From: an uncultured Methanosarcinaceae archaeon
Lineage (GTDB): Archaea > Halobacteriota > Methanosarcinia > Methanosarcinales > Methanosarcinaceae
Assembly: GCA_963847185.1 (NCBI GenBank)
Contig: CAWJYV010000008.1
Location: 32,001 to 96,000, forward strand
Reading direction: 5' to 3'
Length of the DNA stretch: 64,000 nt
The notes under the pieces were generated by a model, which was not told where the DNA came from, did no database searches, and was given only the letters and a program-made list of their open reading frames with translations. The position numbers were made by a program, and so were the translations under genes. Shown here in pieces: positions 29,758 through 48,249 of the stretch. The stretch's first letter is position 1. Every line of letters starts with the position of its first letter.

Positions 29758-30921
29758 TTATGATTTCTCTCTTCTGTGGAGATCGTACATCTGGACTTTT
29801 TTCATTTTTGCCAGGTTGAGTACTCTTTCAAGTTCGTTGTCAGTAAGTTGACGGGCCTCAATGTAGCCGTTGTCTACGGCTTCGTTAAAGATTTCGTATC
29901 CTATGGATGAGCGGGTTAGAACTGTGGTCCAGCCCTTTGGGCTTCCAACTCCACCGAATGAGATGTCTGAGTTTTCGGCGGTGAGGTCAGTGCAGAAACG
30001 GCAGGAAGAGCTTCTGTATTCATCAAAGTCACTGAGTTCGAAGATGTGTTCTTTTCCGTCTTTGAGAGTGACTTCAAACTTTCCTTTCCGGATTTTCATA
30101 GCATCTACGTTTTCGAGTGTGATTCCATAGCTTTCAAGCACGGTTTTGATGCCTTCATATGAAAAGGTGTCCATGCAAAAGAGGCCCAGTTTGAGAACCC
30201 TTGCGCGCATAAAAAGGTGCAGGAAGCCATAGGAACTTTTCTGCATTTTTGTGACGGCATCTATGTTGCAGCTGGTTCCTACAAAGGCAATGCTGTTCAT
30301 TCCCTGTTTGACTGCGCTCATGAGGGCTTCAAGCGTCATTGAATGGGAATAGACGCTGCCGCTGCTTTCAAGAATCTCTTCCCTAGTTTTTGCTACAATT
30401 GGAACTGGTTTCCAGGGTTCTTCTTTTGAGCGGGTTGTAACTACAGCAGAGTCGATCAGTCCTTCATCCAGGCCATAAAGGAGGAGAGAGGTTACAACTC
30501 CCCCATCCTGACCCTTTATTTCAGGAATAGCTGATCTTGCAGCATATGCAAACCGGAAACTTCCAACGAGTCCCTCTTCTGTGGTGATGGTTCTTGGACA
30601 CTGGTAGTAACAGACTCCACAGGCTTTACAGGGGCCAACCAGTTTTGGTGCTCCATTCTCAATGGTTATGTACTCGCAGCTTGCTGCACAGGCTCCGCAG
30701 AGAGTGCAAATGCCTGGTTTTATAATATCTTTTTTAAGTTTTCCAAAGGAAATCTTTTCTTTTTCACTAAGGGTTCTTTTGAGTCGAATTACACTTTTCT
30801 CCAGTACATCGAATTTCTGTTTGCATTCGGGACTGCAGAAATAATATTTTTTTCCCCCGTAATCCGAAACGTATTCCGTATTGTTAGATATAATCTTCTT
30901 GCAAATGGGATCCAGTGGCAT
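29758..30921 (-). CDS. F420-binding FrhB/FpoF-family protein with N-terminal YHS/TRASH domain and 2x[4Fe-4S] ferredoxin
   Basis: DPIC...YYFCSPEC; CTLCGACAASC and CKACGVCYYQCP; GQDGGVVT, GLFC, CRFCTD, DISFGGVG. Confidence 0.88.
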   Translation of the reverse strand: MPLDPICKKIISNNTEYVSDYGGKKYYFCSPECKQKFDVLEKSVIRLKRTLSEKEKISFGKLKKDIIKPGICTLCGACAASCEYITIENGAPKLVGPCKACGVCYYQCPRTITTEEGLVGSFRFAYAARSAIPEIKGQDGGVVTSLLLYGLDEGLIDSAVVTTRSKEEPWKPVPIVAKTREEILESSGSVYSHSMTLEALMSAVKQGMNSIAFVGTSCNIDAVTKMQKSSYGFLHLFMRARVLKLGLFCMDTFSYEGIKTVLESYGITLENVDAMKIRKGKFEVTLKDGKEHIFELSDFDEYRSSSCRFCTDLTAENSDISFGGVGSPKGWTTVLTRSSIGYEIFNEAVDNGYIEARQLTDNELERVLNLAKMKKVQMYDLHRREKS

Positions 30922-37176: not shown

Positions 37177-38217
37177 TTAATCTAAAATGGGTGTTCCGTA
37201 GGTAAAGTCATCAAGTTCCAGGACTTTTTTCCAGAGCTCTTTGCATTCGCAGTCTACTCTGCTGAGGTCAGCTGGGTTCTGGGTAAGTGAAAAAGTCCTC
37301 AGGGAATCTGCAACTTCTGAGCTGCATTTTTTACAGTTGCGAGGGCCACGTTTTGAACCTGCTCCGACAGGATCAGACATGAGTGGGAGGTCTGGATGGG
37401 CTGCTTTTGCTTTCTGCAGGATATCCACTATGCTCCAGAGCCACGGGGGTCGGTACTGGCCTTTTTCCCAGAAAGCCTCAACAAGGGTTCCTTTCTGGAC
37501 ATTGCAAAGATTGATGGAGATTGTGTCAGCATAAGGAGCTGCGTCATCTATTGAACGCAAGATGTCTTCTAAGGCCTGGCGTTCGGAAAGGAAGAGAGGT
37601 TTTAACATCAGGTAAGCTTTTACGGTTGCACCGTGTTTTTTTGCAATTTCTGCTGCGCGGACAAAGTCTTTGAAGGTGAAACCTTTGTTTATTGAGTCTT
37701 TTCGGATTCTGTCCGAACTTGTTTCCAGTCCGAAAGCCAGCTCAAAAGGCTTGTACCCCAGAGTTTTGAGGCATTCCTGCACATTTTCTTCGGTTACATA
37801 GTTGGGACGAGTTTCCACAAGTACTTTAGTAACTCTTGAATCGTCTGCGAGAGTTTTAAGGATCGTATCTCTGGCTTCCCCGGGAACTTCCTGTTCGTCA
37901 AGGAAACTACCTGAGGTAAAGATTTTGACCATAAACTCAGGGAATTTCTCGGCTTTCTTCATTGCTTTTGCAAGCTGGGCTTTATAATCTTCCAGGGTCG
38001 GAGGTTCACTTGCGCAGTCATAGACGTAACCGCACATTGTACAACCCCCAGCTTTCCCCCAGCGGCAGCCCGCGCTCTTGAAGATTATAGTGAGGGTCTT
38101 TATTTGAATCCCGTCTACAAGGTCTACTCCTGTCCAGCTTGCCGCAGGTTCGTCTGTAGGAGAGGGCTTTACTTTAATCCGCTGCCGGATTTCTATTACT
38201 GCTTTATTCAGGGTCAT
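37177..38217 (-). CDS. Archaeosine biosynthesis radical SAM protein RaSEA (TIGR01210-like)
   Basis: GCRWGKAGGCTMCGY, KIFTSGSFLD, ETRP, YRPPWLWS, RGPRNC. Confidence 0.85.
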   Translation of the reverse strand: MTLNKAVIEIRQRIKVKPSPTDEPAASWTGVDLVDGIQIKTLTIIFKSAGCRWGKAGGCTMCGYVYDCASEPPTLEDYKAQLAKAMKKAEKFPEFMVKIFTSGSFLDEQEVPGEARDTILKTLADDSRVTKVLVETRPNYVTEENVQECLKTLGYKPFELAFGLETSSDRIRKDSINKGFTFKDFVRAAEIAKKHGATVKAYLMLKPLFLSERQALEDILRSIDDAAPYADTISINLCNVQKGTLVEAFWEKGQYRPPWLWSIVDILQKAKAAHPDLPLMSDPVGAGSKRGPRNCKKCSSEVADSLRTFSLTQNPADLSRVDCECKELWKKVLELDDFTYGTPILD

Positions 38218-41832: not shown

Positions 41833-42228
41833 TTAAGTTGCCCTGCCATTTTGACAGAAGTGATTATTCGGATTTGCATCCTTGAGATCATACTTTTCCC
41901 ATACTTCACATGAACCACAAATACATTGTCTGTCAAAATTGAGATCCTGGCAGGTAGCTTTTCCTGTTGAGCAATACATTCCTGCAAAATCCTCTTGATC
42001 CGGAACTTCTCCTTCAGGCATGCTTTCCATTGCTTTTTTTGAACTCTTAACTTTATCCCGTGTACAATTACTTTCAGCCTGAACCGGACACTGTTGGCAT
42101 CTACATCTGTTAATATTTACAGATATATAAGGAACTACAAAATCCGTGCCTCTTTCAAAAGTTATATCTCTGTCTCTGGGCGTTATAGAGCCCCTCTCTT
42201 CGGTTGATGTGTTTCTTCCTTTATTCAT
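41833..42228 (-). CDS. DUF2769-like Cys-rich protein
   Basis: CRCQQCP, MYCSTGK, CICGSCEVW, FCQNG. Confidence 0.7.
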   Translation of the reverse strand: MNKGRNTSTEERGSITPRDRDITFERGTDFVVPYISVNINRCRCQQCPVQAESNCTRDKVKSSKKAMESMPEGEVPDQEDFAGMYCSTGKATCQDLNFDRQCICGSCEVWEKYDLKDANPNNHFCQNGRAT

Positions 42229-42521: not shown

Positions 42522-42872
42522 TCAATTACTGGTAACAGGATATCCGGCGTTTACCCAGGCACTGATGCCACCAGCCATATTATATACCTGTGAATATCCT
42601 GCATTTATAAGGATTTTACTTGCTGCTGTACTTCTATGCCCTGTTCTGCAGTAAATCAGTATCTTTTTATTTTGAGGAACTTCATTTATCCTTGTTTCTA
42701 AAAGCATGTTTGAACTCAGGTTTGATCCAAAAGCATTATTTACGGGAATTAGAGTTGCCCCTTTGACATGCGACGAGTTAAATTCAGCAGGTGTTCGGAC
42801 GTCAAGTACGAACACATCATCGCCTTCTTCAATCATTTTCCTGGCTTCTTCTACACTTACATTCTTAAACAT
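42522..42872 (-). CDS. Rhodanese-domain protein; N-terminal anchor apparently detached by a frameshift (original start TTG 42967)
   Basis: LDVRTPAEF..SHVKGA, YCRTGHRS active loop, NMAGGISAW. Confidence 0.85.
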   Translation of the reverse strand: MFKNVSVEEARKMIEEGDDVFVLDVRTPAEFNSSHVKGATLIPVNNAFGSNLSSNMLLETRINEVPQNKKILIYCRTGHRSTAASKILINAGYSQVYNMAGGISAWVNAGYPVTSN

Positions 42873-43313
42873 TGCCGGGTCCCTTTCGTTTTCAGTTGTA
42901 ATGATTAATACAGTTGCTATAAGTTGAAAATGAGAGTGCCAAAAACATAAAATATTTCTTTAATCAAGTTCTTCCCTTATTAAAGGCATCTGGAGTTAGT
43001 TTGATGCATACTTTGTAAGTACGCTATCGTTTGTATATGATGTGCTTCTTGAATATAATTCTGATTACTTTTGTTACTTGCAAAAATTATTGGTCTCCTT
43101 TACATCGTGTCTACATGTTTAGGCCAGCTTTTATTTATATAATATCTGCCAGGTAGGTAAAAATCTCCAGATTCAATAATTTCTGGAAGAATATGCTGAT
43201 GAGAATCGGTGATGGAAAACTGAATCCCGGCTGAAAAGAGAGTCAAAAACCAGAAAATTTAAGCATTTTTGAATTTTCTTCACCAGATTTTTAATCATAA
43301 AAATGTGAATAGA

Positions 43314-43439
43314 CTCATTCGTCGGTCAACTTTGACGGTTGTCGGTCAGTATCAAGAAAAAACTTCTAATGCATTTTTTGATTTTGATAGGGCTTATTCT
43401 TACTGACGTTGCAATCCAGCTCAAGATTGGACGAATGAG
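43314..43439 (-). ncRNA. Candidate structured 3' RNA element, copy 1
   Basis: Closing stem CTCATTCGTC/GACGAATGAG, inner stems CAATCT/GGATTG and GTCAGTA/TACTGAC; homologous copy at 44677-44799. Confidence 0.4.
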
Positions 43440-43494
43440 ATGTTGTAGGTGTTTTAAATTTAGTCTAATTTATGTTCGACTTGTCAACGGTTTA

Positions 43495-43860
43495 TTAGAA
43501 TATATCGTCAAAACCGTCAAAAAAGCCAGCACCACCTATACCAAAAGGACTGTTATAGAGAGCTGCAATCAGAACGTCATTACAGCTTGGACCACAGCCG
43601 CAACCCCAGCCACAACCGTTACCCCAGCCGCCGATACCCAAGTCATCGCCGATACCCAAGTCATCGCCGATACCCAAGTCATCGCCGATACCCAAGTCAT
43701 CGCCGATACCCAAGTCGTCGTCTGCAACTTCTTCTGCAACTTCTTCTACCACTTCGGTTTTACATGCACTCGCTGACACAGCTGTCAATGAAATCACAAA
43801 AAAGATTGCCATCAAAATAGCCAGTGCTTTTCTTATTCTGTCAAATGTTTGTTTCCCCAT
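43495..43860 (-). CDS. Secreted small repeat protein A: signal peptide, (DDLGIG)5 core, conserved C-terminal tail
   Basis: GGAGGG RBS; Sec signal RKALAILMAIFFVISLTAVSASA; paralog at 44863-45213. Confidence 0.85.
   Translation of the reverse strand: MGKQTFDRIRKALAILMAIFFVISLTAVSASACKTEVVEEVAEEVADDDLGIGDDLGIGDDLGIGDDLGIGDDLGIGGWGNGCGWGCGCGPSCNDVLIAALYNSPFGIGGAGFFDGFDDIF
43630..43719. repeat. In-frame 18-bp tandem repeat x5
   Basis: GCCGATACCCAAGTCATC, four exact copies plus one with a single change. Confidence 0.95.
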
Positions 43861-44676
43861 TTATCTATCCCTCCGACATTTTGCTCAATTTAATGCTGTT
43901 TAAGGTCGTTGGTACTTTTATCCGCTCTCCGTCGGCAGATTAATTCTTTTTACTAATGCTATTTTACTAATTAGTCATCCAGATCCATTTCTGGAAAAAT
44001 ATAACATTAGTAAATTCTCTCTGTTTATATGCTAAGAAAAATCTGCCAATGAAAAAGTTTCAAATTTTCCCATCAAATGATATTTATCCATAGAATATAA
44101 TGTATATAGAAATATAGATTAGTAATTCTTAATAAGTAAAAATTAATATTATTCTATAAAACGAATAATTATATGCCAAAAATTAATATTTGATTTTTAA
44201 TTGCCTCGTATATTCCTCAAACTACAACTAAAATCAGTAAAATTCCATAATTTAATATATTTAACGGAAATAATTCTCATTTTAATATGGTTATTCTAAT
44301 TATCTAAAAGCCAGACGAAAACCACAGGTATATTGAGTCATAAAATTATAGCATCAATTGTCATCAATTTCATTCAGGTTCTTCAGTTATTTCTTTTATA
44401 TTACTCATTAAATCAATAACCTCAATTAAGTAACAGCAGCCTGTACTTATATATTCCTTCAATAAAAAAGACAAGGGGCTGATGATAGGCATAAGCGCAT
44501 TTGGAATATTTGCAAGAAACTACAATTCTAAAAATTAAAACCGGATAATCTAATATCCGGTTTACTGGAGGGAAATTGTTTTCATCAGGATTCTATAAAT
44601 CATTGTCAATTCTCAATATGACAACGCCAGCTTTATTTCAGCTTCTGAATCAGTTCATTAAAAATGTAAAATAAGA

Positions 44677-44799
44677 TTCATTCGCCTGTCCACATTGGTA
44701 GTTCCGGCAAGCACCAGAAAAACCTCTCAATACATTTTTGATTTGACAAGGTTAAGAAATTACTGTTTCTACAATCCAACTTGGGACTGGACGAATGAG
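44677..44799 (-). ncRNA. Candidate structured 3' RNA element, copy 2
   Basis: Closing stem TCATTCGTC/GGCGAATGA and hairpin CAGTCC/GGATTG are retained through G-U pairs on the minus strand. Confidence 0.4.
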
Positions 44800-44862
44800 G
44801 AATTCTCGATTGTACATTTTAGAGTTAGTTTAGTATTAATGGTTCAACTTGTCAACGGTTTA

Positions 44863-45213
44863 TTAGAATATATCGTCAAAACCGTCAAAAAAGCCAGCAC
44901 CACCGATACCAAAAGGACTGTTTTGGAGAGCTGCAATCAGAACGTCATTACAGCTAGTTCCACAGCCGCCACAGCCGCCACAGCCGCCGAACCACCCATC
45001 ATTCCAGTCACAGCCACCGCAGCCGCCACAGCCGCCACCACAGCCGCCGAACCACCCATCATTCCAGTCACAGCCGCCACAGCCGCCACCGCAGCCGCCC
45101 CAACCTCTGTTCCAGCCACCTGCGCTTGCTGATGCAGCTGTCAATGACACTACAAAAAAGACTGCCATCAAAATAGCCAACGTCTTTTTTACTTTGTTAA
45201 ATTGTATTTTCAT
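44863..45213 (-). CDS. Secreted small repeat protein B: signal peptide, GGC/DWNDGWF core, conserved C-terminal tail
   Basis: GGAG RBS before ATG45213; signal KKTLAILMAVFFVVSLTAASASA; 60-bp internal repeat. Confidence 0.85.
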   Translation of the reverse strand: MKIQFNKVKKTLAILMAVFFVVSLTAASASAGGWNRGWGGCGGGCGGCDWNDGWFGGCGGGCGGCGGCDWNDGWFGGCGGCGGCGTSCNDVLIAALQNSPFGIGGAGFFDGFDDIF

Positions 45214-45748
45214 CTGTCCACACTCCAAAAATTTTATTAAAAAAGATACAATTTTAAGGCTTTTGATTTTTCAATTTACTCCCATCGTCAAATGCACTGT
45301 CTATATAGTATTTTACCAATTAATCATCCCAGTCTCTTTAGTAAGGTCATATTTCAATATTTATTTATCCCGGGGTTGATCATTGGTTAAATAACTCCTT
45401 TATTCAGTACAAATGGTATTGTGTCGATAGGCGTAATTTCAAATTGTATCATTGGAGTATTATTAATCAAAGAATATAATAGATAGCGAAATATAAATAA
45501 GGAATCCATATTAAATCAATCATTATGTTATTTAGACAAAAATAAATAAAATTAGTAAAATAATACCATTTATCAAAAATCTATCTCCTCAAAATATATA
45601 GTTATTATCTGGATATCGATGGTCTTATCTTTCTAATCAAAAGTAATAGTTATTTAGTCTAAAGTGAATACAATTATCTAAATATATTCTTTCAAACTAA
45701 AATTAGATAAAAAATCACATAGCCAGGTTATGTATTGATATTTTATAT

Positions 45749-46682
45749 ACTATGTTTAAGTAATAATACTGATCATATTTCTTATTAATTTCTAATTTTG
45801 GCGAGAAAAAGACTCAAGATAATTGCTCAAAAGTTAGAGGGAAACTACATTGATTATGGCTGAGATCCTGAAATCTCATCCTGTTAAGTTTTAGTAGATT
45901 TATGCTATTAATAATCTATGTAAAGAATATGTTAAACTCGTGGATTGATTTCAAACTACGGAAATAAGACTGAACTTTGAAATTGACATTGTTCAATATA
46001 GTTTTTAAGAAAAGAACTACAACAGACACGGATCAACACTAATCTATACAGTCTAGATCCATTTGTATTTTCTTTATTTTGTTTTATTGAGGATATGGAA
46101 TCATTCAATAGAAAAGAAAAGTAAAGGGCTGTAAACTGAATTACAAGCTTGCAGCCTTCAATTTAAGCCGAAATCAATAACTTACAATCGTTAAATGTCT
46201 TATCCATGCTTTACAACTATGTTTAAGTAATAATACTGATCATATTTCTTATTAATTTCTAATTTTGGCGAGAAAAAGACTCAAGATAATTGCTCAAAAG
46301 TTAGAGGGAAACTACATTGATTATGGCTGAGATCCTGAAATCTCATCCTGTTAAGTTTTAGTAGATTTATGCTATTAATAATCTATGTAAAGAATATGTT
46401 AAACTCGTGGATTGATTTCAAACTACGGAAATAAGACTGAACTTTGAAATTGACATTGTTCAATATAGTTTTTAAGAAAAGAACTACAACAGACACGGAT
46501 CAACACTAATCTATACAGTCTAGATCCATTTGTATTTTCTTTATTTTGTTTTATTGAGGATATGGAATCATTCAATAGAAAAGAAAAGTAAAGGGCTGTA
46601 AACTGAATTACAAGCTTGCAGCCTTCAATTTAAGCCGAAATCAATAACTTACAATCGTTAAATGTCTTATCCATGCTTTACA
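45749..46682. repeat. Exact 467-bp tandem duplication (45749-46215 and 46216-46682)
   Basis: Both units run ACTATGTTTAAGTAATAATACTG...TTATCCATGCTTTACA; no differences seen by eye. Confidence 0.93.
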
Positions 46683-46704
46683 TGAACACTTTTACGATCA
46701 GTTA

Positions 46705-47874
46705 TTACATATTTTCAGTCATGTTACTTATTTTCCCATTTATTCCGGCCATATTACCCATATTTTCAATTTGAATGGTTTTTTCAGTAATGTTACATGT
46801 GAAAGTTTTAGTCATAACTTGAGTTGTATCATCCATTTTTTGAATTATAAGTATCTTTTTGGTTATATTCTCCATTTCACTCATTTTTTCATCCATTTCA
46901 GCCGTATTATATATTTTTCCATCCATTCCAAACATATTCTCCATTTCTCCAGTCTCTTCACTCATTTTTCCGAGTACAGTCATGTCTTCACTTATTTTGA
47001 CCATTTCCATACTTTCGTCCATTCTGGTGCTGTCCATATCACGGAATATAAGCATAGTTCCAGTCATATCACATGTCATTGGACCAGTCATATTACTCAT
47101 GTTTCCGGCCGTTCCAGTCATATCACTCATATTTCCTGCCGTTTCAGTCATATTAGTCATGTTTCCGGCCATTCCGTGCATCTTACACATATTTCCGATC
47201 ATTTCGGTCATATTACCAATATTTTTGATTACAACCACTTTTCTAGTCATATCACCTGTTACGGTTGCAGTCATATTTCCAGTCATGAGCACACCCATAT
47301 TATCCATATTTTCGCTCATTCCGGTCATATTATTCATATTTCCAGTCATGTTTGCCATGTTTCCGGTCATATTATCCATGTTTCCGGTCATGTCAAGTGT
47401 CACGGTTGCAGTCATATTCCCAGCCATGATTATGGTCACATTGCCCATTTTTTCGGTTAGGTTACCTATATTTCCGTCAATTCCAGGCATTTTCATATGT
47501 TCATCCATTTCGGGCATATTATTCATTTTTCCGACCATAATCACTTTTCCGGGGATATTGTCCATTTTTCCGATAATAACCACTTTTCCGGGCATATTAT
47601 CTAAGCTTTTGATTATAGCTATCTTTCCGGTTACAGTCCCTGTTTTTGGCGTGTTACTCATATTTCCGGTCATATTTTCCATTTTTCCGGCAACGTTCAT
47701 ATTTCCGATTACAGCTGCGTTTCCAGTCATGTTGCATGTAATGGTTTTAGCTATATTTTCTGTCACTATTACATTCATGCTATCCATGTCAGCCGTGTTA
47801 GTCTGTGCTTGCACCGATACAACAGATAAGATCAGGCATATCGCTAACAGAGGAACTATTAGTTTCATTTTCAT
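46705..47874 (-). CDS. Secreted Met/Asn/Thr/Gly-rich low-complexity repeat protein
   Basis: GGGGG RBS, signal peptide ending VQA, recurring MTGNMxN heptads and KxxIIxxMDN units. Confidence 0.85.
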   Translation of the reverse strand: MKMKLIVPLLAICLILSVVSVQAQTNTADMDSMNVIVTENIAKTITCNMTGNAAVIGNMNVAGKMENMTGNMSNTPKTGTVTGKIAIIKSLDNMPGKVVIIGKMDNIPGKVIMVGKMNNMPEMDEHMKMPGIDGNIGNLTEKMGNVTIIMAGNMTATVTLDMTGNMDNMTGNMANMTGNMNNMTGMSENMDNMGVLMTGNMTATVTGDMTRKVVVIKNIGNMTEMIGNMCKMHGMAGNMTNMTETAGNMSDMTGTAGNMSNMTGPMTCDMTGTMLIFRDMDSTRMDESMEMVKISEDMTVLGKMSEETGEMENMFGMDGKIYNTAEMDEKMSEMENITKKILIIQKMDDTTQVMTKTFTCNITEKTIQIENMGNMAGINGKISNMTENM

Positions 47875-48249
47875 TCTTTACCCCCCGTATTTGAGTTCGA
47901 CTATCGAGTCGATTATATATTAATTAAATAAAAAAATAATTTAATATAAAACAATAATAATAAATAGCTGTCTTATAAATAATTAATCTTTGTTAACTAT
48001 GAAGACTAGTCCAGATTTAAAGAGCATGAAGCGTTTTAAAAGTAACTATCAGTTATAGATTTATTCTATTTGATAACAGATGTTGAGTAATATAATCTAA
48101 AAATCGCAGTAATTATTTTATTTGAAAAGTTCTATTTTAATGCTTACCTTGAAACATCTGTAATCCATCTCTCTGCTTCTACATAAACATCGTCTGAAAC
48201 TTCTTTCAAGCTATGACAGTGTTTTGCGTATTTTGATCCTTTTAGGTTC

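Follow-up and report, generated by a model that had tools for sequence, protein, structure and literature searches.

Several described systems share features with the gene pair considered here, which we call genes A and B. In bacteria, RiPP precursors undergo modification in the cytoplasm and are not known to carry an export signal. Metallothioneins have a high Cys content arranged in C-x-C and C-x-x-C motifs and contain few or no aromatic residues, and plant glycine-rich proteins are structural components of the wall. The genus Methanosarcina is set apart from its sister genera by its capsule, aggregation and surface-mediated electron and metal exchange, and we know of no protein partners for the Methanosarcina capsule matrix. 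The closest known counterparts of A and B are uncharacterized hypothetical proteins encoded at the same locus, for example WP_048121680.1 of M. barkeri MS and the type represented by WP_422544242.1 / MGV8076014.1 in G255, the next relative of the present genome (G000) after its sister species (G267). Like A and B, these proteins of 101–156 aa are encoded upstream of a rhodanese gene, have the same type of signal, and combine short tandem repeats and Cys runs with an aromatic/Gly-rich C-terminal end. Unlike A and B, which carry DDLGIG and CGG/DWNDGWF repeats, they carry HKDKC/CDWG repeats and lack the exact 30-aa tail that A and B have in common.

The window, meaning the whole 64,000-nt stretch of DNA that was analyzed, contains the pair with the following features.

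43495..43860, minus strand: gene A, 121 aa (open reading frame and sequence; syntenic 119-aa orthologue in G267)
44863..45213, minus strand: gene B, 116 aa from the ATG at 45213 (open reading frame and sequence)
43765..43860, minus strand: gene A signal peptide, residues 1–32, predicted cleavage after S-A-S-A (inspection of the translation)
45121..45213, minus strand: gene B signal peptide, residues 1–31, predicted (inspection of the translation)
43629..43720, minus strand: 18-nt tandem array, 5.1 copies, 98% match, encoding (DDLGIG)5 (Tandem Repeats Finder)
44960..45096, minus strand: 60-nt tandem array, 2.3 copies, 90% match, encoding CGG/DWNDGWFGG units (Tandem Repeats Finder)

Both genes have a GGAGG-like, Shine–Dalgarno-like motif ∼10 nt 5' of the ATG. 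An in-frame TTG at 45228 is a less likely start for gene B because it overlaps the Shine–Dalgarno-like GGAGTG. Gene A is ordered as signal peptide, acidic EEVA/(DDLGIG)5 repeats (two EEVA units plus the DDLGIG series), a short Gly/Trp/Cys run and the 30-aa tail; gene B is ordered as signal peptide, GGW/CGG/DWNDGWFGG repeats (GGC/CGG runs and two DWNDGWFGG units) and the 30-aa tail. The last 30 residues of the two proteins differ at a single position (Y versus Q). At the DNA level the tails are identical at 87/90 nt, with similarity running ∼25 nt beyond the stop codon (27/31), and the signals are identical at 78/99 nt. This sharing of signal and tail is far beyond chance. The translations and the repeat analysis confirm what a first-pass annotation, made from the letters alone, had described: a co-oriented pair with a common signal and a near-identical tail, and cores of EEVA/(DDLGIG)5 in A and GGCGG/DWNDGWF in B. 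The gene directly upstream of the pair encodes a Met/Asn-rich secreted protein.

By inspection, each signal opens with an n-region rich in K/R, continues through ∼17 hydrophobic residues and closes with a c-region of the S-A-S-A cleavage type, these being the features of a Sec-type signal peptide and signal peptidase I substrate, and cleavage is predicted for both. In an AlphaFold2 model from a 13-row alignment, the signal is the only confidently modeled helix (pLDDT 66–80), and the mean pLDDT of 48.7 is too low for a fold search. The same signal type is present on at least 14 small low-complexity ORFs of the genome, and the tail on only two. The signal had been proposed as a leader specific to the pair or its family; judged by its features and its genus-wide occurrence, it is a generic export signal typical of the genus.

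A profile (A2) built from an alignment dominated by the signal matches 52 of 58 other genomes of the genus and none of the 118 genomes in 15 other (sister) genera at E ≤ 1e-8, with about half of the listed matches covering little beyond the signal part. Genes A and B match this profile over positions 2–103 of 105 (E 6.5e-24 and 1.6e-24), scores that arise partly by construction, both genes being rows of the alignment. In the protein database it finds 34 proteins, all of 55–199 aa, and nearly all have the same kind of signal followed by short repeats. One related database protein (P0032) carries the precomputed Pfam assignment PF27846.1. The position of these genes was compared using a neighboring anchor:

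42522..42872, minus strand: rhodanese-domain gene, synteny anchor, downstream of A (Pfam PF00581, E 1.1e-22)

Orthologues of the rhodanese gene are found in 43/59 genomes of the genus, the present one included. All 20 syntenic loci fetched from the genus contain at least one gene of the family and 10 contain at least two, with a range of 1–4. The members at this locus have the same signal type, differing short repeats and an aromatic/Gly-rich C-terminal end; repeat types elsewhere in the genus include CDWKDK, RFDKFD and VMDRDR. Genes A and B belong to this family: they have the genus-typical signal, fall within its length range of 80–190 aa, contain short tandem repeats and lie upstream of the rhodanese gene. 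We set aside a functional link to the rhodanese, given a spacer of ∼620 nt and an N-terminal hydrophobic segment of the rhodanese that varies among species (it is lacking in G000 and G267 and found in others). All database copies checked are annotated only as 'hypothetical', and our literature searches returned no description of the family, which agrees, as far as that literature goes, with the earlier suggestion that it is undescribed. By its distribution and sequence diversity, this appears to be a fast-evolving family of small exported repeat proteins, apparently restricted to Methanosarcina.

The cores of A and B had been taken to be unrelated. The G267 orthologue of A, however, has two DDLGIG units, compared with five in gene A, followed by GWNDGWLGGCG, and so joins the acidic repeat of A to the Trp/Gly/Cys motif of B. 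Because this protein bridges both core types, the two cores are, as far as their sequences can tell, related. Similarity to more distant members is largely confined to the signal. When A and B are compared with the G255 genes by BLASTP, only the signals align (residues 1–34 or 3–41), and the tail match is weak (E 0.0175 per genome, 50% over 28 aa); orthology with G255 is assigned from synteny, the signal and this weak tail match. Gene A matches at least seven loci in genome contigs; among the matches listed, six cover only residues 1–39, the signal, and one, from Methylobacterium, covers residues 41–73 of the acidic repeat. A homologue search with B gave three weak matches, which have its signal and Gly/Cys runs in common and lack the tail. 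Using hhalign, we compared A-type with barkeri-type mature regions, and the last 36 aa with acetivorans-type ends, and neither alignment was better than reversed or shuffled controls (probability 3.3% versus 5.4% for the reversed control; for the C-terminal ends, the score of the real alignment was equalled or exceeded in 164/200 column shuffles). A homology between the tail and the ends of other genus members, the barkeri and acetivorans types included, has no statistical support and is not demonstrable. Neither A nor B showed similarity to any solved or named protein in searches of Pfam, NCBIfam and the PDB, where the best phmmer hits (E 0.089 for B and 0.023 for A) were low-complexity noise, and an ESM Atlas search gave no usable match.

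The tails and their 3' flanks are located as follows.

43471..43600, minus strand: gene A tail, stop codon and ∼25 nt of 3' flank, putative conversion tract, tail codons 43498–43587 (DNA alignment)
44839..44970, minus strand: gene B tail, stop codon and ∼25 nt of 3' flank, near-identical to A, tail codons 44866–44955

The exact tail is present in 2 of the 284 genomes of the order, twice in G000 (E 7e-20 and 5e-16) and once in G267 (E 3e-18), and every other match in these genomes has E ≥ 0.008. A phmmer search of 1.84 billion representative proteins with a 35-aa tail gave no matches at E ≤ 1e-3, self included; the exact A and B sequences are absent from a collection of 15 billion proteins; and a degenerate DNA pattern for GGAGFFDGFD found four stretches in metagenome contigs, all in unrelated frames. 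The first-pass annotation had named restriction of the tail to these two duplicates as the outcome that would count against it, and the search across the order comes close to that, with a single additional copy in G267. The G267 contig stops 261 nt upstream of its orthologue of A.

Comparison with the G267 orthologue reveals a mosaic pattern of identity. In the upstream 200 nt, A and B are identical at 129/218 positions and A and its orthologue at 180/201; the corresponding values are 87/90 and 85/90 in the tail and 199/329 and 264/304 downstream. The A–B identity is thus 97% in the tail DNA against 59–60% in the flanks, and the tail of A is closer to that of B than to that of its own orthologue. 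Among codons for the same amino acid, synonymous changes between A and B number 5/20 in the signal and 1/29 in the tail (Fisher p 0.035, a small test), and 3/29 separate the tails of A and its G267 orthologue. G255 has both A-like and B-like paralogues, and their tails differ. The mosaic pattern argues that the A and B tails have probably been homogenized by gene conversion over ∼130 nt at the 3' ends. The near-identity of the tails, which had been read as conservation, is most simply explained as a copying over between A and B rather than as a constant recognition sequence of ancient origin. Strong purifying selection on the nucleotides themselves, as on an RNA element, could likewise keep the tails alike; an Rfam search of 42800–48200 at E ≤ 0.1 found nothing, a result with which such an element is still compatible. 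A predicted complex of four tail copies scored 0.02, which bears neither for nor against association of the tails.

These results also bear on whether A and B are RiPP-like precursors, with the constant tail serving as a follower that brings in a trans-acting maturase and the repeated core serving as payload. As in cyanobactins and fungal dikaritins, conserved ends surround a variable, repeated middle within this genome, and Cys and Gly are abundant in the cores. Unlike in those systems, the leader is a Sec-type signal, generic for export, conservation of the tail is limited to one narrow lineage, and there is no cognate maturase nearby. Pfam searches of 21 neighboring ORFs and NCBIfam searches of six identified no maturase or protease, and within ∼5 kb there is no gene for a YcaO protein, radical SAM maturase, peptidase or ABC exporter; the nearest radical SAM gene (37177–38217) encodes the archaeosine enzyme RaSEA (TIGR01210, E 2e-115). 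The absence of an adjacent maturase had been noted from the outset, and a trans-acting one is possible. The repeats, moreover, are contiguous units of 6 or ∼20 aa without flanking conserved or protease recognition sites, so that the pair lacks protease-bounded core units as well as a nearby modifying enzyme or protease and a recognition sequence conserved across the family. With the tail in so few genomes, its identity fitting gene conversion and the G255 paralogue tails differing, the proposed architecture of constant tail and variable payload does not hold, and we regard a RiPP-like role as extremely unlikely.

An archaeosortase sorting signal was likewise rejected. Like the PGF-CTERM, PEF-CTERM and related substrates, A and B are predicted to be exported and have a conserved C-terminal segment with a P-F-G triplet, but unlike PGF-CTERM the tail has a hydrophobic run that is short, not of transmembrane length, and no basic end, ending instead in acidic D-D-I-F, and so does not have the tripartite C-terminus. 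NCBIfam sorting-signal models did not match A or B at E ≤ 1, and the exosortase/archaeosortase model PF09721 had no matches in the 99.83% complete genome, whereas the control matched in M. jannaschii.

Genes with no recognizable family, fold or name, whose turnover is very fast and whose exact sequences are missing from the 15-billion collection, might be ORFs that are spurious, decaying or close to neutral under selection, lying in a variable, AT-rich region. Several observations make this very improbable. In 20/20 fetched loci the syntenic site retains the ORF and its signal, Shine–Dalgarno-like motifs are present, and genes A and B have a G+C content of 47% and 52.7% within spacers of 28–29%. 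Two RNA libraries of one study yielded contigs (696 and 620 nt) that span gene B together with its flanks, to which they are confined, and leave out the 710-nt intergenic stretch; they represent the metatranscriptome of a close relative, a related strain, and are no proof of transcription. They differ from gene B by in-frame lengths of 69 and 12 nt, one 69-nt repeat unit being skipped (45008→45078), and all length differences found in these contigs and the G267 orthologue are in frame (69, 12 and 3 nt). For gene A the coverage consists of 48-nt repeat pieces alone, and RNA runs X3 and X5 yielded short pieces only. The initial view of the genes as real, small, exported (by their signal) and uncharacterized is supported.

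The composition of the mature chains invites a second reading, in which A and B are extracellular metal- or sulfide-binding proteins resembling metallothioneins or metallophores. On this view the Cys runs (C-G-C, C-G-G-C) would act as chelators of thiophilic Zn, Co, Ni or Cu in an anoxic, reducing setting and the acidic repeats as ligands of Ca or Mg, with trace metals buffered or stored in the capsule. Cys, regularly spaced, makes up 12.9% of mature B and Gly 38.8%, Asp+Glu account for 22.5% of mature A, and many relatives in the genus have C-x-C or HKDKCDC repeats. The Met/Asn-rich secreted protein encoded next upstream would also suit such a role. As in metallothioneins, the chains are short and Cys/Gly-rich with C-x-C spacing, and thiolate metal binding is plausible by this analogy; unlike cytoplasmic metallothioneins, A and B are predicted to be exported, contain only 5.6% and 12.9% Cys, and have many Trp and Phe residues. 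Co and Zn are reported to be localized to the M. barkeri capsule, and the part of that study available to us names no protein ligand (preprint 10.64898/2026.02.14.705942). On the other side, neither A nor B matches a metallothionein family in Pfam at E ≤ 1, a result to which the HMMER bias filters, which may suppress low-complexity matches, could contribute. The aromatic content is high (15.3% in B), mature A has only five Cys residues, and no metal transporter or regulator was recognized by Pfam among the neighboring ORFs. Many members of the family lack Cys, and several at syntenic sites, the RFDKFD types among them, contain little or none, so that thiolate chemistry is not a family-wide role. 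We consider metal or sulfide binding as the main function rather unlikely.

Plant cell-wall glycine-rich proteins (PF07172 GRP) offer a different comparison, in that a signal peptide is again followed by Gly-rich repeats. Gene A matches PF07172 with E 8.5e-4 and 20.4 bits, under the 30-bit gathering cut-off, and gene B does not match. The proteins come from a different kingdom, and the likeness is one of composition and architecture in which homology is not demonstrable.

Hypervariable cores at a fixed locus with 1–4 copies per genome, and repeat numbers that vary between close strains, could also reflect diversifying selection on small, predicted exported peptides with an antagonistic or defensive role, be it that of an archaeocin-like toxin or of a virus decoy or coat. 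Tandem arrays, fast turnover and lineage restriction would all be accounted for in this way. However, the mature chains are strongly acidic by composition, which is unusual for membrane-active peptides; Pfam and NCBIfam searches of the neighbors recognized no immunity, transporter or processing gene, and there is no similarity to solved or named proteins. An antagonistic role is in our judgment improbable.

The reading that we slightly favor overall is that of a pair with converted tails within a diversifying family of exported envelope or matrix repeat proteins. Its evolutionary part we hold with good confidence. Genes A and B would be old tandem paralogues in a rapidly diversifying, Methanosarcina-specific family of small, Sec-exported, low-complexity proteins, arranged as arrays of 1–4 genes upstream of the conserved rhodanese gene. 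Each member would consist of the genus-typical signal, cleaved after A-x-A, a short-tandem-repeat core that lengthens and shortens by replication slippage, and an aromatic/Gly-rich C-terminal end; gene conversion over the ∼130 nt at the 3' ends would have produced the near-identical tails in this genome. The functional part, drawn from composition, is tentative. After export, the acidic, Gly-rich and largely disordered chains of 85–89 aa may remain in the envelope or capsule and serve there as non-enzymatic components of a matrix or coat, in which Asp carboxylates and Cys thiolates might bind cations or cross-link and the hydrophobic, aromatic tail might promote association. A bolder extension, to which we assign little weight, is that the locus upstream of the rhodanese gene is, throughout the genus, a diversity-generating array in which slippage and gene conversion keep remodeling secreted Cys/Asp/aromatic repeat peptides; these would form a protein phase of the Methanosarcina capsule, cross-linking or decorating methanochondroitin and holding the Co, Zn and other metals reported for the capsule of M. 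barkeri, and could thereby aid aggregation or cytochrome-independent extracellular electron uptake.

If the favored reading is correct, the pair would not represent a new peptide natural-product system. It would be a clean, small case of concerted evolution, in which a conversion tract of ∼130 nt mimics an 'invariant functional motif', and a reason for care when precursor peptides are sought by their motifs. It would also mean that annotation hides many small, exported low-complexity repeat proteins with a common signal peptide in Methanosarcina, including one hypervariable array of such genes at a fixed chromosomal site that is apparently restricted to the genus. Since M. barkeri and M. acetivorans are genetically tractable, the genes of this array would be cheap and testable candidates for protein components of the matrix.

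Genes A and B are co-oriented in an AT-rich, gene-poor stretch of the window:

43495–43860, minus strand: gene A, 121 aa
44863–45213, minus strand: gene B, 116 aa counted from the ATG

The genes have G+C contents of 47% and 52.7%, compared with 28–29% for the spacers and 40.7% for the window, and a GGAGG-like motif lies ∼10 nt 5′ of each ATG. At both N-termini a basic n-region precedes ∼17 hydrophobic residues and then S-A-S-A, which by inspection reads as a Sec/signal-peptidase-I type signal. The last 30 residues (the tail) differ by a single Y/Q change, and the cores are encoded by tandemly repeated DNA: an 18-nt unit in 5.1 copies (98% match) gives (DDLGIG)5 in A, and a 60-nt unit in 2.3 copies (90% match) gives CGG/DWNDGWFGG units in B. 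These translations confirm the paired genes with a common signal, near-identical tails and repeat cores described in the first-pass annotation. Mature A (89 aa) contains 24.7% Gly, 22.5% Asp+Glu and 5.6% Cys, and mature B (85 aa) 38.8% Gly, 12.9% Cys and 15.3% Phe+Trp+Tyr.

The cores had been taken to be unrelated, a view overturned by a gene in the sister-species genome G267. This gene is the orthologue of A: it too is followed by the rhodanese and isochorismatase genes, and identity is 90% over the 200 nt upstream and 87% in the downstream flank. Its core, two DDLGIG units followed by GWNDGWLGGCGNGCGCGCGWDFGCGCGCG, unites A's acidic repeat and B's Trp/Gly/Cys motif. In essence, therefore, B corresponds to A with the acidic module missing and the Gly/Cys/Trp module expanded.

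The tail is restricted to one narrow lineage. In the organism's own genome (G000) it is found only in A and B (next best E = 1.2), and when 284 genomes of the order were searched in six frames, convincing matches came from just two, at two places in G000 and one in G267 (E = 2.6e-18), a same-genus draft that is 81% complete; the remaining 57 genomes counted as tail-matching all have E ≥ 0.008. A 35-aa tail query (phmmer) had no match among 1.84 billion representatives, a collection that lacks the exact A and B proteins, and four metagenome contigs, none of them related, matched a degenerate DNA pattern based on ten residues of the tail. The gene A scan of genome contigs returned, among the matches listed, only signal matches and one chance acidic-repeat match. 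When the A/B tail was aligned to the C-terminal ends of other family members with hhalign, the probability was 3.3% versus 5.4% for a reversed control, and the real alignment was equalled or outscored by 164 of 200 column shuffles; homology could not be demonstrated. An archaeosortase-type signal is ruled out, because the tail has neither a transmembrane stretch nor a basic end and G000 has no exosortase/archaeosortase match.

Identity of A to B and to the G267 orthologue of A, by segment
Segment; A–B; A–orthologue
Upstream 200 nt; 129/218 (59%); 180/201 (90%)
Signal; 78/99; 89/96
Tail; 87/90 (97%); 85/90
Next 31 nt; 27/31; 28/30
Further downstream; 199/329 (60%); 264/304 (87%)

Because A is closer to its orthologue than to B in the flanks, the A/B duplication predates the split from G267. 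The two G000 tails are nevertheless nearer each other than the tails of A and its orthologue are. Among codons compared only where the same residue is encoded, differences between A and B number 5/20 in the signal and 1/29 in the tail (Fisher p = 0.035), with 3/29 between the tails of A and G267. In the next relative, G255, whose rhodanese is 81% identical, the same site carries two tandem genes, one B-like (136 aa) and one A-like (156 aa), whose tails are unlike each other. The A-like tail retains C-x-C-I-T-A-A-L-...-P-F-G-V-G-G (a weak match, E = 0.0175, 50% identity over 28 aa) and the B-like tail G-F-F-D-G-...-I-W. The tail of G000 resembles a combination of the two before they diverged. 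Only the signals align between A/B and the G255 genes by BLASTP, so this comparison rests on synteny and weak similarity. The A/B tail identity is best explained by gene conversion.

These results bear on the RiPP precursor explanation, in which a constant signal and an invariant tail would flank variable cores. The pattern of invariant tail and unrelated cores is a local product of concerted evolution in a fast-evolving family, and is no evidence for a precursor-peptide system. The neighbors are housekeeping genes, and the sole radical SAM gene within ∼5 kb is RaSEA, in keeping with the earlier remark that no such maturase is adjacent.

The signal is not confined to these two genes. Searching with both signals (tblastn) located the same type of N-terminus at >20 further places in G000, and 14 ORFs, A and B among them, match a strict signal pattern, the others with very different low-complexity cores (e.g. 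Lys/Trp-rich, GGAS-rich or Asn/Tyr-rich). Besides A and B, at least 12 small ORFs of G000 carry nearly the same signal on unrelated low-complexity cores, often as tandem pairs, at places outside the window such as C8:222996-224742, C8:1026700-1029900 and C10:167084-170221. Candidate 37–86-aa ORFs that lack a signal peptide (C1:35411-35620, C4:45367-45552 and C4:107825-107869, also outside the window) contain Gly/Cys/Phe/Trp/Arg runs (GFGG, CGGGCGG, GFDG) that echo the composition of B.

Profile A2, built from 13 syntenic proteins, matches 52 of 58 other Methanosarcina genomes at E ≤ 1e-8, at up to 19 places per genome, and none of 118 genomes from the family's 15 other genera; of the listed matches, about half extend little beyond the signal part of the profile. 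Within a 1.5-kb flank, 11 of 29 non-self loci have a small signal-bearing ORF upstream of the rhodanese orthologue. With 4–10 kb fetched from 20 genomes, 1–4 such genes were found by pattern in 19, the twentieth (G216) has one by eye and profile match, and 10 loci have at least two. This genus-wide locus is hypervariable: repeat units vary by species (CDWKDK, HKDKCDC, CGNDCNWG, RFDKFD, VMDRDR, KCDPKI, DDWGG), and the C-terminal ends are rich in Phe, Gly, Trp, Asp and Cys. Against a 5.8-billion-cluster database, A2 matched 34 proteins of 55–199 aa, nearly all of the same build, and every name shown was 'hypothetical protein' or 'uncharacterized protein'. No Pfam model exceeded its cut-off for 12 family members, and none from Pfam or NCBIfam did so for A or B, the best being plant GRP (PF07172, 20.4 bits versus a 30-bit cut-off, A only). 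We found no description of the family in the literature, and as far as that search reaches it is, as first suggested, an undescribed archaeal family. One database match, the 114-aa P0032 with CKDKCDWG repeats, has the precomputed Pfam label PF27846.1; this recent Pfam family may already cover part of the class.

That A and B are neutral ORFs is a further rival explanation. Searches for the pair found no solved relative, Atlas neighbor or Rfam element. Reading frame, signal and position are preserved across the genus, and the length differences seen are all in frame (3 nt in G267; in RNA-library contigs, 69 nt skipped and 12 nt inserted). The A/B pair is a real feature. Two metatranscriptome runs of one bioreactor study gave contigs of 696 nt (depth 55.8) and 620 nt (depth 15.5) spanning 44594/44615 to 45271/45368, that is, gene B and its flanks, in which the Q codon reads Y and the tail is identical to that of A. 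No listed RNA-library piece covers the 710-nt spacer (43868–44577), and gene A is represented by 48-nt repeat pieces only. These data are a weak hint of transcription in a close relative and do not prove it. Other transcripts among the RNA-library contigs match only the ∼50-nt signal-coding stretch (45118–45171), at depths up to 458; with the other signal-bearing ORFs of G000, they point to a signal module that can be reused.

Several neighboring features were also recorded. Between B and the next gene, the spacer (27.6% G+C) contains a perfect 467-bp tandem duplication (45749–46682; 2.0 copies, 100% match), each copy with the same 50-aa ORF (45956–46108, 46423–46575), which could be a very recent event or an assembly artefact. 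An exported 389-aa protein (46705–47874, minus strand), with a different signal type, Met/Asn-rich GNMTGNM-like repeats and many N-x-T/S sequons, has no Pfam or NCBIfam family; it could be a surface protein, either heavily glycosylated or Met-rich and metal-binding. A Cys-rich 131-aa ORF (41833–42228, minus strand) between the isochorismatase-family and rhodanese genes has no match in Pfam (E ≤ 1e-5) or NCBIfam (E ≤ 1e-3). Rhodanese orthologues of most other species (L034, L041, L047 and other loci, at ∼1400–1600) begin with a hydrophobic segment, possibly a membrane anchor; the G000 (42522–42872, minus strand) and G267 proteins lack it, with a stop codon before the Met. An FrhB/FdhB-family protein (29758–30921, minus strand) has an N-terminal YHS domain (E = 4e-11).

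AlphaFold2 gave a mean pLDDT of 48.7, with only the signal helix confident and a weak helix at residues 92–103; such a model fits disorder, but low scores prove little when the alignment is shallow. Most likely, the proteins would be exported by Sec and cleaved after A-S-A, and the acidic, Gly-rich and probably disordered mature chain would be retained in the envelope or capsule, serving as a matrix or coat component without an enzymatic role; there, carboxylates and thiolates would bind cations or form cross-links and the hydrophobic/aromatic end would promote association. Rivals to this coat role are an antagonistic or decoy peptide and dedicated metal binding. Co and Zn are reported from the capsule of M. 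barkeri, with no known protein ligand, in a preprint (10.64898/2026.02.14.705942), and the sections covered of a 2025 review-type paper on Methanosarcina surfaces do not mention such proteins (PMC12369344). The family would evolve via slippage, tandem duplication and conversion, and the profile's matches, in 52 of 58 other Methanosarcina genomes and in none of the sister genera, parallel, as a correlation only, the genus-specific capsule.
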